Source: Spirochaetota bacterium
Lineage (GTDB): Bacteria; Spirochaetota; UBA6919; CBDBPB01
DNA: 64,000 nt
Direction: 5' to 3'
Assembly: GCA_965208615.1 (NCBI GenBank)
Contig: CBDBPB010000003.1
Coordinates: forward strand, 64,001 to 128,000
Shown: positions 53,160-64,000 of the stretch, piece after piece
Position numbering within the stretch: the first letter of the stretch is position 1
Layout: every line of letters begins with the position of its first letter
The notes under the pieces: generated by a model
What the model was told of the DNA's origin: nothing
Seen by the model: only the letters and a program-made list of their open reading frames with translations
Databases searched by the model: none
Position numbers and translations under genes: made by a program

Positions 53160-54497
53160 TTAAAATACTAAATCAGAAGGAATCTTTCTTTTTTCCATTT
53201 CATCCATCAATACTTTTGCCTCATCAAAGTTAGTAATCATACTACGAAGCAAGCTATAGGTCATAATATTAGGCGGTATACCTTGTTTTTCCATTTCTAT
53301 TGTAATATTCTTTGCTTCTTTATAATCGGGAGCTTTATCAAGAATAGTGTAATATATATTCAAATTTGGATGTATGTTATTGTTAGCCATATTATTAAGT
53401 AGCTCTTTTCCTTCTTGATAACTAGGAGCCATAGAAATTAAATTACTATATATTGAGGTATTAGGCTTAATATGCTTTTCTAATAGCTCATCCAAAAGAG
53501 ATCTGGCATTATAATAGCTAGATGATTTAGTAATTAGCAAGTTATAGGTATGAGCATTGGGAATATTATTATTTTTCTCCATTTCTCTTAGCCAATATCT
53601 CCCAGTGTTATAGTCGGCTGACTTATCAATTAAAAGGTTATATGTACGAGTAGTAGGCAAAAGATCGCTTTCTTTGATCTGATTAGCAAATCTTACACTA
53701 GTATTATAATCTGGTATACTTTCTATTAGATGATTCCACTTTTTTACCAATAATTTTTTATCAATATTAACTCTTTTTGCCAAGTCAACAAACATATCAG
53801 TGGCATGCTCTGATAGTCTAATAGCCTCTTCAGTTCTCCCTATGGTATACATAGTATATATAAACCAGTCAGGATATTCAAGGTCTTCACGGATTTCTGG
53901 TTTAATATCCTTTAGTGTATGTATATCAAGATCTTCTTCCATTTTTTTACAAAGGCCTTCATTTTTTCTATCTAAAAGGTTTATAGCCTCAAAATCAAAA
54001 TCTCTAACTACAGTTCTAAGAACGTTATAGTCAACAATAACCTCATTAGTTCTACAGCATCCAGCGGCTCTAACAGATTTTCTTGCACTATCCCCAACCC
54101 AATGTTTACTATGATCCGGCAGGCTGACACACATATCTATTCCAGAGTCTATAGCAATCCTTAAAGGAGATATAGACTTTTTACTAAGACCAGTATAGTT
54201 TGCCATTTCCTCCTGGAATTTATGAGCCATAATAGTTGCCAAACAACAAATAGCAGGTATTTTTCTTTCTTTACTGGTCATAACAAGCCATCCATCACCT
54301 GTAAACTGTATAATAGCATCATCCAGTGATAGTTTTCTAATATGAGGTACAATTTGTTTAACTAAATATTTATTAAACTTATTTTGTTCTTGTATAGTTC
54401 GTTTAATAGCGGCCTCTGTTGACTTAATCATATCAATGCTTAAACAATAGATTACACCTATCCAGCCTTCTTCTTGGGAATAATCAATACGCTTCAT
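53160..54497 (-). CDS. Class III nucleotide cyclase domain fused to PPR-like helical repeats
   Basis: Cyclase motifs SIDMIKST, FTGDGW, LRIAIDSG, WVGDSARKSVR and NEVIV, plus six 32-aa repeats of type TYNLLI...EM...I.PN. Confidence 0.8.
   Translation of the reverse strand: MKRIDYSQEEGWIGVIYCLSIDMIKSTEAAIKRTIQEQNKFNKYLVKQIVPHIRKLSLDDAIIQFTGDGWLVMTSKERKIPAICCLATIMAHKFQEEMANYTGLSKKSISPLRIAIDSGIDMCVSLPDHSKHWVGDSARKSVRAAGCCRTNEVIVDYNVLRTVVRDFDFEAINLLDRKNEGLCKKMEEDLDIHTLKDIKPEIREDLEYPDWFIYTMYTIGRTEEAIRLSEHATDMFVDLAKRVNIDKKLLVKKWNHLIESIPDYNTSVRFANQIKESDLLPTTRTYNLLIDKSADYNTGRYWLREMEKNNNIPNAHTYNLLITKSSSYYNARSLLDELLEKHIKPNTSIYSNLISMAPSYQEGKELLNNMANNNIHPNLNIYYTILDKAPDYKEAKNITIEMEKQGIPPNIMTYSLLRSMITNFDEAKVLMDEMEKRKIPSDLVF
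53172..53747 (-). repeat. Six tandem 32-aa PPR-like protein repeats (aa 251-442)
   Basis: Aromatic anchors W254, Y286, Y318, Y350, Y382 and Y414 are spaced exactly 32 aa apart. Confidence 0.8.
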
Positions 54498-54740
54498 TTT
54501 AAGTAAGACCTCAGATAATCTAATTTTAAAAAAGCTATAACTATAAATTATAGCTTGTTAACACAATATTATTTAACCTTAAAACGGTTATGATAAACAA
54601 ATCTAATAATAAATACAAGATAAGAATTCTCAAGTAGATAATATATAAAGGCCTAACAGAAATATTCATTATCTTTTACTATATAAGTAAAGCTAAAACA
54701 GATAAATAAACTAATATATTATATAGATTGCCAAAAAAAA

Positions 54741-56468: not shown

Positions 56469-57887
56469 TTATGTTCTATATTCTAGAGTTTCATGAGTTT
56501 CTGATTTAATTATCTGTAAATCTGTTAGTTCCCTAATAAAAATACTAAGCCTATTTACATTACCATTTATATCAAAAATAGGTATTACAATAAGCAATAC
56601 CTTAATATCAAGAATCTCAGCATTAATATAAACAACCTTTCCACTATGAAAAACCTCTTCTATTTTATCTATAACATCCTTAGGATTATCAATAGATAAA
56701 AAGTCATCAATATGAAACCCAATTAAGTTACCTTCTCTTTTACTAAAGAACTCACAAGCAATATAGTTAGCTTCTAAAATAGTTCTTTGTTTATCAACTA
56801 AAATAGTAGGATCAATAGGGTTTCTAAGTATAGCTTTAATTGAAGTTTCTCTTTTCTCTAAAAGCCTTTCAACTCTGCTTAAGTCTTTATTATCTTGGAT
56901 TAAGTTTGCAGTATATAGTTCTAGTTTAGTAGTATAATTATTTAGTTGCTCTTCTTTTTTCTTAAAACTGGAGATATCTCTAATAATAGCAATACCTTCA
57001 TCAGCTTTATTTTTTACTATTCTTATCTCATAATCATAGAGTTTATCTTTTAGCATAAGTTGATAATCAAAGATTTGTAAATGTCCAGTTTCTAAAGCTA
57101 TTTTTACATAATCTATAATTTGTTTTGCAACCTCTTTTGGCATAACATCAAAAATCTTTTTACCCAAAAAGTCCGAAGGTGGAACAAAAGGAGATAATGT
57201 ACTAACAGGCTTTAACTTTAACATAGTACCATCAGCTTTTACCCTAAAAACCATATCAGGCAAAGCTTTAAAAACAGCATCACCAGTGGTACTCTTTGAA
57301 CAAAGAATCTCTAATAACTTATCATATCTAATTTTTGATTCAAACTTGCTTAACAAGTCTTCAGGGGATAGTGAAGCTTCTTTTATTAAATCCGACTTAA
57401 ACTTGGACCATCTAATAGGATTACCTTTTTCAAGTTTCTTATCCAAAAGTTTAACAATGCTATGTCCCAAAGGAGTTAAACGAACAGCAACCCTACGCCT
57501 TTTTTTTCTACTCTTATATAAAAACCTAAACTTTTCAAGTTTTCTAATAGCTCTAAGATGAGATTCATAGGCTCTAAGACCTGATTCACCTTGTTCAATA
57601 ATCTCAAAATCACTATCAGGAGAAGGAGCAAGTAATAAAACACGTCTTTCATGCTTTCCTAATCTTACATTAGAAAAGTTTTCAACTTCGAGTTTCACAG
57701 CCTTATTACAATAACTACACGGAAGATATTTAGAAATGACTAGTAAAATTTTATCTTTATCAAAAGGTATATTATTAAAAAGCTTTGCTAGCTTATAGGA
57801 TATTAACTCCATAGGCCTACAGACTTTTTGATCAATATCGCAAAGCATTTTTTCAGTATTAAAAGCGTTTATTTGTGAAGATAGCAT
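56469..57887 (-). CDS. Putative winged-helix plus two PAS domain protein
   Basis: RAIRKLEK.RFLY...VAVRLTPLG (MarR-like wing), PAS1 ALPDMVFRV...IIRDIS and PAS2 DPTILVD...FIRELTD. Confidence 0.65.
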   Translation of the reverse strand: MLSSQINAFNTEKMLCDIDQKVCRPMELISYKLAKLFNNIPFDKDKILLVISKYLPCSYCNKAVKLEVENFSNVRLGKHERRVLLLAPSPDSDFEIIEQGESGLRAYESHLRAIRKLEKFRFLYKSRKKRRRVAVRLTPLGHSIVKLLDKKLEKGNPIRWSKFKSDLIKEASLSPEDLLSKFESKIRYDKLLEILCSKSTTGDAVFKALPDMVFRVKADGTMLKLKPVSTLSPFVPPSDFLGKKIFDVMPKEVAKQIIDYVKIALETGHLQIFDYQLMLKDKLYDYEIRIVKNKADEGIAIIRDISSFKKKEEQLNNYTTKLELYTANLIQDNKDLSRVERLLEKRETSIKAILRNPIDPTILVDKQRTILEANYIACEFFSKREGNLIGFHIDDFLSIDNPKDVIDKIEEVFHSGKVVYINAEILDIKVLLIVIPIFDINGNVNRLSIFIRELTDLQIIKSETHETLEYRT

Positions 57888-62263: not shown

Positions 62264-62653
62264 ATGAAAAAACGTATAATGTATTCCTCATTTTTTATAA
62301 TACTATTTTTATTAGGCTGTAATCATAGTCGTTTTGACCATCTAAGGGATTATGAGGCTCAAAAAGATGTACTTTCTTTAATAGAAGTTCTAAAAAAGGA
62401 TAAAGATGACTATATTCGTGCTCAAGCGGCTCAATCTCTTGGCAGGCTTAAGAGTCGGAAGGCTATTCCTGCATTAATTGATTGTATAAAGGATAAAAAC
62501 TGGACAGTTCGGTATTTTTGTGTTCAATCCATCGGAAAGATTAAAGATAAAAGAGCAATTAATCCTCTTAATAATCAAAAGAAGATAGAAAAGGATGAAA
62601 ACGTCTTTAGGGAAATAGATAAGGTCCTAAATAGTATTAAAAATTCCAAGTAA
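62264..62653 (+). CDS. HEAT-repeat lipoprotein
   Basis: Lipobox FLLGC and HEAT repeats IRAQAAQSLG, AIPALI and VRYFCVQSIG. Confidence 0.85.
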   Translation: MKKRIMYSSFFIILFLLGCNHSRFDHLRDYEAQKDVLSLIEVLKKDKDDYIRAQAAQSLGRLKSRKAIPALIDCIKDKNWTVRYFCVQSIGKIKDKRAINPLNNQKKIEKDENVFREIDKVLNSIKNSK

Positions 62654-62663
62654 AGGAGAAAAG

Positions 62664-63284
62664 GTGATTGAGTTAAGAACATACATATTCACTGATTCAT
62701 TACAATTACAGCTTGCTTCATTTTTAGCTACGGTATCAAAGGGTTATTTACCTGTTGCAGAACAGGCATCTTTGTATATAGAGATATCCCCTGGTATTGC
62801 TATAAATAGGTTAACTGATGTGGCATTAAAATCTACAGGTGTACGTCCTGGTATACAAATAGTAGAGCGTCAGTTTGGTATATTAGAGGTACACTCTGAT
62901 GATAAGGGTGAGGTATTAGCTGCTGGGGATGCAATTTTAAAGGAGTCTGGTCTTGATCAGGAGGATCGTCTTAAGCCAAAAGTATTAACCAGTCAACTAA
63001 TAAAGAATATTGATGATTATCAAGCACAGCTAATAAATAGGGTTAGACACGGTAATATGGTTTTAAGAGGGGATACGTTATTCTTTATGGAGATAGATCC
63101 AGCTGGATACGCCTTTTTCATAGCTAATGAGGCTGAAAAGGCCTGTCGTCTTAATATAGTTGAGGTGGTTGGACATGGACGCTTTGGTCGTATGTATATT
63201 GCTGGAGATGAGGCGGATATAGTAATTGCTCAAAAAGCAGCTGAAGAGGCAGTTAACTCTATAACCGGCAGAAAAATTAAATAA
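62664..63284 (+). CDS. Bacterial microcompartment tandem-domain shell protein (BMC-T, double-stacking type)
   Basis: ELRTYIF.DSLQ.QLASF, EISPGIAINR.TD.ALK, VERQFGILEVH, ANEAEKA and GRFGRMY. Confidence 0.92.
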   Translation: MIELRTYIFTDSLQLQLASFLATVSKGYLPVAEQASLYIEISPGIAINRLTDVALKSTGVRPGIQIVERQFGILEVHSDDKGEVLAAGDAILKESGLDQEDRLKPKVLTSQLIKNIDDYQAQLINRVRHGNMVLRGDTLFFMEIDPAGYAFFIANEAEKACRLNIVEVVGHGRFGRMYIAGDEADIVIAQKAAEEAVNSITGRKIK

Positions 63285-63300
63285 AAAATGAGGTAAAAAA

Positions 63301-63603
63301 ATGGCAGAAGGATTTTCTGATGCTTTAGGTATGATTGAAACTAGAAGTTTTGCAGCTATGGTAGAGGCCAGTGATGCAATGGTAAAGGCGGCAAAGGTTG
63401 ATTTAGTTGGCTTTGAAAAAATTGGTGGTGGATATGTAACTGCAATAGTAAGAGGAGATGTAGCAGCCGTAAAAGCCGCTACTGAGGCTGGTAGTAAAGC
63501 CGCTGAACGAGTTGGTGAGGTTATATCTGTTCACATTATTCCAAGACCCCATAGAAATGTTGACGAGGTACTTCCTCTTGGACGGGAAAAAATTAAAAGT
63601 TAG
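63301..63603 (+). CDS. Bacterial microcompartment hexameric shell protein (BMC-H)
   Basis: [35 protein letters not shown] and HIIPRPH. Confidence 0.96.
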
Positions 63604-64000
63604 ATTTTTTATTAGTTTTATTTTTATATTGGGCTATATATTTATTTGTAATCTGAGTTTTTCTCAGAATAAGGATAAGTTAAACTTAAATATTACTAAA
63701 GAAGCGTCTAAGAACGAGGATAAAGATAAAGCCAAGAACGAAAATAGTAATAAGTTAAAATTAGATACTCTTAAAACTAAGAAGTCTAAGGATGATAAAG
63801 ATAAAGCCAAGAACGAAAATAGTAATAAGTTAAAGTTAGATACTCTTAAAACTAAGAAGTCTAAGGATGATAAAGATAGTAAAGAGTTAAAGCTTAAGTC
63901 TGTAAAGCCTAAGAAAGAGCCTTCTTGGATAGAAATCTATGGAGGCGGTGGTTATTTATTAGAGTTAAACAATAAGGGTTATGAGTTATATTTTTCTATT
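63578..64000 (+). CDS. Secreted hypothetical protein (partial, runs off the window)
   Basis: TTG start with a GAGG RBS inside the BMC-H 3' end (in-frame ATG at 63557 is an alternative). [30 protein letters not shown] signal peptide; open to the window end. Confidence 0.65.
63719..63878 (+). repeat. 75-bp in-frame tandem repeat, about 2.1 copies
   Basis: Units start at 63719, 63794 and 63869 (partial). One synonymous mismatch; encodes [25 protein letters not shown]. Confidence 0.92.

Follow-up and report, generated by a model that had tools for sequence, protein, structure and literature searches.

A single minus-strand gene in a 64,000-nt stretch of Spirochaetota DNA (contig CBDBPB010000003.1 of assembly GCA_965208615.1; this whole stretch is called the window below) encodes P0001, a protein of 445 amino acids (aa) in which a class III nucleotide-cyclase domain is followed by six pentatricopeptide repeat (PPR) units of 32 residues. 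PPR repeats are RNA-reading modules, known mainly from plant organelles. We read the protein as a one-gene, stand-alone signalling enzyme, a cyclase with a 32-residue PPR solenoid that would be switched by RNA in the family at large and is relaxed in this lineage, and we hold this reading at just short of an even chance. What the computations establish is both folds, a three-residue deletion in the repeat, the two metal-binding aspartates, a code alphabet shared across the family, the absence of any linked effector gene, and the recurrence of the same repeats at the C-terminus of proteins with Walker A, TIR or SIR2 parts. P, L and G numbers below are our labels for proteins, loci and genomes.

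The repeat array and the cyclase domain

The initial annotation, made from the letters alone, had proposed six 32-residue units starting at aa 251, 283, 315, 347, 379 and 411, and a PPR variant with three residues missing near the turn between helices A and B. Both proposals were borne out: the array spans aa 251-442 (window positions 53747-53172, minus strand), profiles and predicted fold identify it as PPR, and alignments show the three residues to be missing. That annotation overlooked the N-terminal half of the protein, a nucleotide-cyclase domain of which the repeats form the tail. Compared with itself, P0001 scores 1.43 at period 32 and below -0.5 at every other period from 25 to 41, including the canonical 35 (-1.01), and none of 2000 shuffles reached the period-32 score (best shuffle -0.12). 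Pfam PPR_2 (61.4 bits, cut-off 30), PPR_3 (51, cut-off 25) and TIGR00756 (31.4, cut-off 20) all match above their cut-offs, and designer PPRs head the phmmer search of the PDB (E 1e-32). Aligned to these, every repeat shows a three-residue gap immediately ahead of the conserved Lys at the helix A-B turn, so that canonical positions 10-12 are the ones absent. This placement rests on the designer-PPR alignments and on the majority residues of the family units; profile-profile alignment of 32- against 35-residue units gave a probability of 99.7 and no columns. The units share just 2-14 of 32 identical residues pairwise and a tandem-repeat scan found no DNA tandem repeat over the array, which is therefore not an assembly artefact.

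The AlphaFold2 model of the repeat region (predicted local distance difference test score, pLDDT, 95) places helix A at residues 1-10 and helix B at residues 14-26 of each unit. In the designer PPR (dPPR), helix a covers residues 1-14; Lys13 lies at the end of that helix, and its replacement by Ala abolishes binding (PMC4837458). The Lys13 equivalent of the 32-residue unit is position 10, likewise at the end of helix A. Superposition on PPR10 and designer PPRs, which had been suggested as a check, revealed PPR geometry: the repeats match PPR10 with Z 17.7, cPPR 4pjr with Z 18.6 (root mean square deviation, rmsd, 2.1 over 163 residues) and the RNA-bound designer PPR 5i9g with Z 18.9 (rmsd 5.7). 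An unbiased structure search of 48,161 chains returned as best matches synthPPR 4ozs, PPR10, dPPR and the PPR domain of PRORP1 (Z 16.5-17.9), with chains of tetratricopeptide repeat (TPR) type lower (PilW Z 12.1; best TPR-titled chain, CTPR 9qhc, Z 10.8). A TPR identity of the repeats was rejected, PPR chains scoring clearly higher.

By its predicted fold the array behaves like a P-class PPR, and by its length it falls outside the class. It shares with P-class and designer PPRs (PPR10 4m57/4m59; dPPR 5i9d-5i9h; cPPR 4pjr, 5orm) the helix-turn-helix superhelix, the profiles and the residues at position 5 and at the last position, and differs from them in having 32 instead of 35 residues and a helix A of 1-10 instead of 1-14, in being prokaryotic and in its fusion to a cyclase. 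PLS-class proteins are different again: P0001 lacks P-L-S triplets and E or DYW domains, its units are uniform and it ends three residues past unit 6. S motifs are short at their C-terminal end, whereas the 32-residue repeat keeps a P-type tail and has its helix A shortened. Since S-type motifs of 31-32 residues exist (PMC12733224, PMC12787238, PMC8809517), and follow nearly the same code as P motifs (PMC11094755), shortness alone is not new. PPRs have been called absent from bacteria bar rare transfers, for example in Ralstonia (PMC3858423). The literature that we covered, mostly papers readable without subscription, contained no description of a 32-residue prokaryotic PPR or of a cyclase-PPR fusion.

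Residues 12-200 superpose on the cyclase CyaB 3r5g (VIA-align Z 19.6, rmsd 2.5, 185 residues aligned), and similar scores are obtained for RhGC 6sir, Cya2 2w01 and Rv1625c 7yz9 (Z 19.0-19.6, rmsd 2.2-2.8). P0001 shares with these class III cyclases the fold, the two metal aspartates and the catalytic Arg, and differs by its low identity (11-17%), an Asn to Arg replacement, a Gln/His pair and the PPR tail. The domain lies below Guanylate_cyc detection, the Pfam scan of P0001 at 1e-5 giving no cyclase match; PADLOC PycC matches are weak (E 1.4e-6 with 26 bits, and 1.9e-4), the uridylate cyclase 8jsz matches only at E 0.16, and the best ESM Atlas matches (0.78) belong to clusters named cyclase, which we take as leads only. 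All 53 domains that were aligned keep Asp22 and Asp68, the loci having been found with patterns that included Asp68, and a PDB profile search brings the aspartates, as well as both base-selecting positions, into register with CyaC and RhGC. A homodimer prediction for the domain (0.43, control 0.46) was counted neither way.

The active site was tallied in the 81 proteins, out of 136, in which both motifs were matched. The base-selecting pair is Lys/Asp in 73 of them, Gln/His in 6 and another in 2; in engineered RhGC, Lys497/Asp566 serve adenine selection (bioRxiv 10.64898/2026.08.12.744502). Gln64/His132 of P0001 is thus neither the adenylyl pair Lys/Asp nor the guanylyl pair Glu/Cys, which suggests that its substrate is not the ATP predicted for the Lys/Asp relatives. 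The Gln/His proteins are P0001-P0006, a single clade (SH-aLRT branch support 100, quick tree) whose members all measure 445-449 aa, share the same C-terminal motif and lack the TPR-like block that most relatives carry at the C-terminus; two of them bear a Spirochaetota source label. A frameshift truncation of P0001 was considered and rejected, the C-terminal end being common to the six orthologues.

The 32-residue family and its partner domains

The counts given here are lower bounds, as they rest on the best 120 of 3232 matches obtained when the P0007 repeat region was the query and on the best 150 of 33,890 in a profile search. Among at least 258 proteins the best period is 32 in 176, 35 in 73 and another value in 9. 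The earlier suggestion of a compact subclass is supported, the 32-residue unit being a real prokaryotic subclass of PPR. A whole-protein search returned 29 matches among 4690 candidates, 28 of them with both a cyclase and period 32. In GTDB genomes we counted 61 loci, including ones from Chloroflexota, Armatimonadota, Actinomycetota, Planctomycetota, Acidobacteriota and archaea, and in one quick tree the 32-residue PPR covers 16 phylum-level groups, archaea included. The repeat region had no match in the phage collection, and a search of sequencing runs listed no RNA data set that contains it. The plasmid records matched are 123, from Ralstonia (122) and Rahnella (1); by tblastn the Ralstonia PPR genes are about 30% identical, and their matches take up about 204 codons per 180 query residues, as would fit longer repeats of the 35 type. 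Length variants were also seen, with period 30 in P0064, P0122 and P0257 and period 33 in P0069 and P0162.

The 175 period-32 proteins above the score floor comprise at least 120 cyclase fusions, 98 of which end in a TPR-like block, and 55 proteins without a cyclase; the median is 9 repeats per protein, and 66 of the 175 have at least 10. Two cyclase fusions carry something more, P0014 a C-terminal domain without annotation (aa ~680-778) and P0127 an N-terminal Schlafen AlbA_2 domain (aa 26-156). Among the 55 proteins without a cyclase, a Walker A motif lies upstream of the repeats in 32. For non-cyclase proteins Pfam and PADLOC report TIR, SEFIR, SIR2 and weak nSTAND3 matches; a second set of 43 gave TIR (5), SIR2-type (4), restriction-nuclease (2) and other defence models (2), with 3 matching via their repeats alone and 27 matching nothing. 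Proteins P0054, P0062, P0074, P0106, P0139, P0142, P0146, P0151, P0154, P0156, P0159, P0164, P0165, P0187 and P0235 are NLR/Avs-like. Their N-termini are of TIR, SEFIR, SIR2 or nuclease type, most of them have a Walker A motif, and their arrays comprise as many as 17 units of 32 residues with canonical code pairs. Immunity triggered by RNA is probably best studied in these proteins.

The layout of Avs5 (Sir2-nSTAND3-repeat) is shared by the relatives that combine SIR2 or TIR, Walker A and the 32-residue repeats; P0001 itself has no STAND NTPase by Pfam, structure or PADLOC. HNH fusions with a PPR annotation also figure among bacterial immune proteins in a source that does not state the repeat length (PMC12738770). 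Pycsar and Pucsar systems share with the present family a weak PycC match and a patchy distribution, and differ by an adjacent cNMP-binding (cyclic nucleoside monophosphate-binding) TIR or transmembrane effector, none of which is recognised beside P0001-type genes. The text covered of the Pucsar preprint, a survey of immune cyclases, describes no PPR tails; its Table S1 or figures might list the clade under a TPR label. A two-gene Pycsar system was rejected, as no effector gene adjoins. A cNMP-binding domain was found in 0 of 99 immediate neighbours at E 1e-6, and no family of neighbours is seen at more than 4 of the 61 loci, bar split-off ends of the cyclase-PPR gene itself. Elsewhere in the genome of P0001 there are 10 cNMP-binding and 8 Guanylate_cyc matches, so unlinked receptors exist. 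We take P0001 to be a divergent class III cyclase and neither a Pycsar nor an Avs protein. A survey by Kaur et al. lists cNMP cyclases among conflict-system domains, some of them inactive, and its available text leaves PPR unmentioned (PMC7159879).

Code residues and competing explanations

To score the code in the family, 122 proteins supplied 875 unique units, with 12 proteins of eukaryote type and 35-residue units excluded; ND, NN, NS, SN, TN, TD, SD and NT were taken as canonical pairs of position 5 and last position. Such pairs occur in 739 of 875 units, and in later sets in 274/380 (non-cyclase) and 82/99 (cyclase); in 35-residue PPRs, chosen without a polar constraint, they make up 130 of 153. 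The family is thus as canonical as the longer repeats, which speaks for RNA reading. Position 5 is N in 62%, S in 18% and T in 5% of units, the last position N in 46%, D in 41% and S in 5%; position 2 is V, I or F in 44, 11 and 10% and carries a hydrophobic residue in 72%, and K or R occupies position 10 in 75%. Between near-identical sibling repeats (243 pairs from 70 proteins) the last position (0.354) and position 5 (0.305) are the most variable of the 32, mostly by D/N and N/S/T changes. When the proteins are clustered, 23 of 52 clusters contain such pairs; the two positions remain first and second, and the code positions are above the mean in 18 of the 23 (p=0.011). Counted as DNA changes in 66 pairs from 21 genes, the last position ranks second and position 5 is tied fourth with 16 changes. 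Mutual information between the two is not special, position 32 coming sixth.

Conservation between orthologues was followed in several clades. Ten Aquicultor-like orthologues, 51% identical, conserve position 5 at 0.75 and position 10 at 0.79 (mean 0.54); in Armatimonadota position 5 reaches 0.63 against a mean of 0.44, and in Acidimicrobiia 0.56 against 0.50. The P0036-P0053 group, to which these ten belong (e.g. P0042, aa 753-944), keeps a C-terminal string of pairs S/N, N/x, S/N, N/D, N/N, N/D and a near-invariant Lys10, which suggests a conserved target of about A-Y-A-U-Y-U, if the code holds. In an Acidimicrobiia-type clade (L022, L023, L024, L035, L054, L055, P0073), four later repeats conserve K or R at position 5 and likewise E at position 2, possibly a salt bridge or a different ligand mode. 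Taken together, these patterns speak moderately, though not conclusively, for a code that works in the family.

The family solenoid would bind single-stranded RNA (ssRNA) in the manner of PPRs, through positions 2, 5 and last, with Lys10 in place of Lys13. Binding would switch the cyclase, probably through the geometry of its dimer, much as the repeats may serve as sensor in the NLR-like relatives, and the cyclic nucleotide would act on receptors encoded elsewhere. Should the repeats gate cyclase, TIR or SIR2 domains, prokaryotic immunity would possess natural sensors that read RNA sequence, and enzymes triggered by RNA could be built on a ready-made design. A bolder form, which we put forward tentatively and hold to be more probably wrong than right, is that the prokaryotic 32-residue PPR is a re-programmable sensor: duplication of repeats and TALE-like swaps at position 5 and the last position would let foreign RNA switch on a cyclase, TIR, SIR2 or nuclease, and the P0001 gene would be a diverged branch making a different cyclic nucleotide. 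The occurrence of a 32-residue PPR with its code alphabet intact in so many phylum-level groups bears on the origins of PPRs, and on the survival of the code after the shortening of helix A.

Several observations weigh against the RNA-switched cyclase. RNA binding and cyclase activity are both predictions from sequence and models. The seed pattern demanded polar residues at position 5 and the last position, and the count of 739 canonical pairs may therefore be inflated. Once the proteins are clustered, the code positions lead by little (0.312 and 0.309, with 0.304 at position 19); they exceed helix-B surface positions by 16 to 6 (p=0.052), the last position does not outdo a helix-B cap control at position 13 (12 to 8, p=0.50), and at the DNA level positions 2 and 9 show 22 and 18 changes, position 5 being unexceptional. 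D, N, S or T at the last position also suits a helix N-cap. In the cyclase, Arg replaces the usual catalytic Asn in 81 of 81 proteins, with the catalytic Arg143 kept; some active cyclases do lack that Asn. Of the 108 neighbours chosen, PADLOC recognises only 9, three of which share a single defence island (L060), and the window offers housekeeping neighbours, so the neighbourhood gives no support for a defence role. Finally, PaAvs5-3 (MCO2951615.1), with a PPR-annotated sensor whose repeat length is not stated, blocks the ssRNA phage PP7, which is a point in favour of RNA sensing; against it, PaAvs5-3 is also activated by the phage protein JADA, and PaAvs5-2, with repeats of TPR type, likewise blocks PP7 (PMC12931631).

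The response to JADA is also the first argument for the strongest rival, which we consider unlikely though well worth keeping in view: the solenoid would sense a protein, of phage or host, as TPR sensors of Avs and NLR proteins do, and the polar residues at position 5 and the last position would be inherited or structural. The K/R-5 plus E-2 repeats of the Acidimicrobiia-type clade are a pattern outside the RNA code, the TPR-like block ends most cyclase fusions, and the P0001 lineage itself has a polar position 2, a drifting position 5 and a groove charge per repeat of 0.33 against 0.82 in the family. Against this rival stand the N/S/T alphabet at position 5, which helix capping leaves unexplained, its toggling between sibling repeats, and the K or R at position 10, so frequent in the family and near-invariant in one clade.

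In P0001 the pairs at position 5 and the last position are exactly those first reported (N/T, N/N, N/N, S/N, Y/N and S/D), five of six being canonical, and the idea that the code residues are retained is supported for the family and weakened in this lineage, where position 5 drifts. Across five proteins of the clade (P0004 was omitted as a near-copy of P0002) its conservation is 0.37 against a mean of 0.38, rank 19 of 32, with N/Q/K/T/N in unit 3, S/N/N/H/D in unit 4 and Y/H/N/I/I in unit 5. Loss of conservation at the code positions in homologs, named beforehand as a sign against the code, is thus found in the clade for position 5; the last position is conserved (0.72, rank 3), which helix capping could explain, and the family keeps the alphabet. 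Canonical pairs number 24 of 36 in all six clade members. In designer PPRs position 2 clamps the base and Lys13 contacts the phosphate (PMC4837458); position 2 of P0001 is K, R, H, S, N and M, hydrophobic in one of six, and Lys stands at position 10 in three units of six. Unit 6 has no capping helix, because the protein stops three residues after it, and a designer PPR required at least 10 repeat-base contacts for binding (PMC11662938), a number that six repeats do not provide; a cyclase dimer could double the contacts.

A further rival, which we regard as improbable, is that the enzyme or the sensor is vestigial in this lineage, so that P0001 would be a pseudo-cyclase or else a cyclase that is no longer regulated and whose repeat tail decays. 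The Asn to Arg replacement, Gln/His in 6 of 81 proteins instead of Lys/Asp, the absence of the TPR block, the low share of canonical pairs in the clade and the existence of inactive conflict-system cyclases (PMC7159879) speak for it. Against it, the six-member clade keeps an intact open reading frame (ORF) of constant length with the same end, and both base-selecting residues have changed together with the metal aspartates and Arg143 kept, which looks like a selected substrate change.

The proposal that P0001 reads about Y-Y-Y-A-N-G, one base per repeat, has in its favour the five canonical pairs, the match to RNA-bound 5i9g and the conserved last position, and is very doubtful: given a drifting position 5, a position 2 polar in five of six units, few Lys10, only six repeats and no helix past the last one, the target is unsupported and, judged by these residues, not credible, the repeats appearing eroded. 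We return to the RNA-switched cyclase as the preferred reading, with the addition that the P0001 lineage is old and truncated, with relaxed repeats, and that P0001 most likely binds RNA weakly or with little sequence preference. The gene was also put forward as a programmable scaffold, for which it is a poor starting point, the consensus-like P0007, P0008 and P0042 being better; it counts more as a natural variant, with its eroded repeats and its Gln/His pocket.

Gene layout and genomic context

Coordinates of the gene and of its parts are collected in the table.

Table. Features of the P0001 gene, in window coordinates
Feature	Position	Strand	Remarks
ORF P0001, 445 aa/codons	53160..54497	-	class III nucleotide-cyclase domain, helical linker and six 32-aa PPR units
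GAGGT, ribosome-binding-site-like	54508..54512	-	10 nt upstream of ATG; from sequence, putative function
Class III nucleotide-cyclase domain, ~aa 12-200	53898..54464	-	fold match CyaB 3r5g, weak PADLOC PycC
Asp22, first metal-binding aspartate	54432..54434	-	invariant 53/53; aligns with CyaC aspartate motif
Gln64 (base-selecting) to Asp68 (second metal aspartate), motif QFTGD	54294..54308	-	most relatives have Lys at the Gln64 position
His132 (second base-selecting), Arg139, Arg143	54069..54104	-	His132 is Asp in most relatives; Arg139 stands where the catalytic Asn usually is; Arg143 is the catalytic Arg
Helical hairpin linker, aa 209-240	53778..53873	-	AlphaFold2 helices 209-218 and 222-240; joins cyclase to repeats
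PPR unit 1 (32 aa), aa 251-282	53652..53747	-	position 2 K; 5/last N/T; position 10 S
PPR unit 2 (32 aa), aa 283-314	53556..53651	-	position 2 R; 5/last N/N; position 10 K
PPR unit 3 (32 aa), aa 315-346	53460..53555	-	position 2 H; 5/last N/N; position 10 K
PPR unit 4 (32 aa), aa 347-378	53364..53459	-	position 2 S; 5/last S/N; position 10 M
PPR unit 5 (32 aa), aa 379-410	53268..53363	-	position 2 N; 5/last Y/N (outside canonical pairs); position 10 K
PPR unit 6 (32 aa), aa 411-442	53172..53267	-	position 2 M; 5/last S/D; position 10 M

The gene is flanked on the same strand by an exonuclease-III-like gene and a Rieske/glutamate-synthase gene. It is present in a single copy, without paralogues in its genome, and its GC content (32.1%) is close to that of the genome (31.3%), so that no signal of recent transfer is seen. 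Among 41 genomes (its own and 40 relatives) a strong match is found only in its own and in G002, and two matches are weak (E 7e-6 and 8e-4). The promoter scan was uninformative, with 16 sites against 11.4 +/- 3.7 in shuffles and no terminator.

A split cyclase-PPR gene lies inside the defence island at L060:4048-13651, where a TmtA-like gene, an SMC/LmuB-like ATPase and a SIR2-TIR-like gene surround it. In the window itself, a 472-aa ORF at 56469-57887 (minus strand) carries PAS domains, with no output domain detected by Pfam. Positions 62264-63603 hold a HEAT-repeat protein, a 206-aa ORF (no Pfam match at 1e-5) and a bacterial microcompartment (BMC) shell gene, the probable start of a microcompartment cluster. 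A 75-bp tandem repeat (2.1 copies, 98% identical) at 63719-63878 lies inside a Lys/Asp-rich ORF that begins at 63512 and has no Pfam match.

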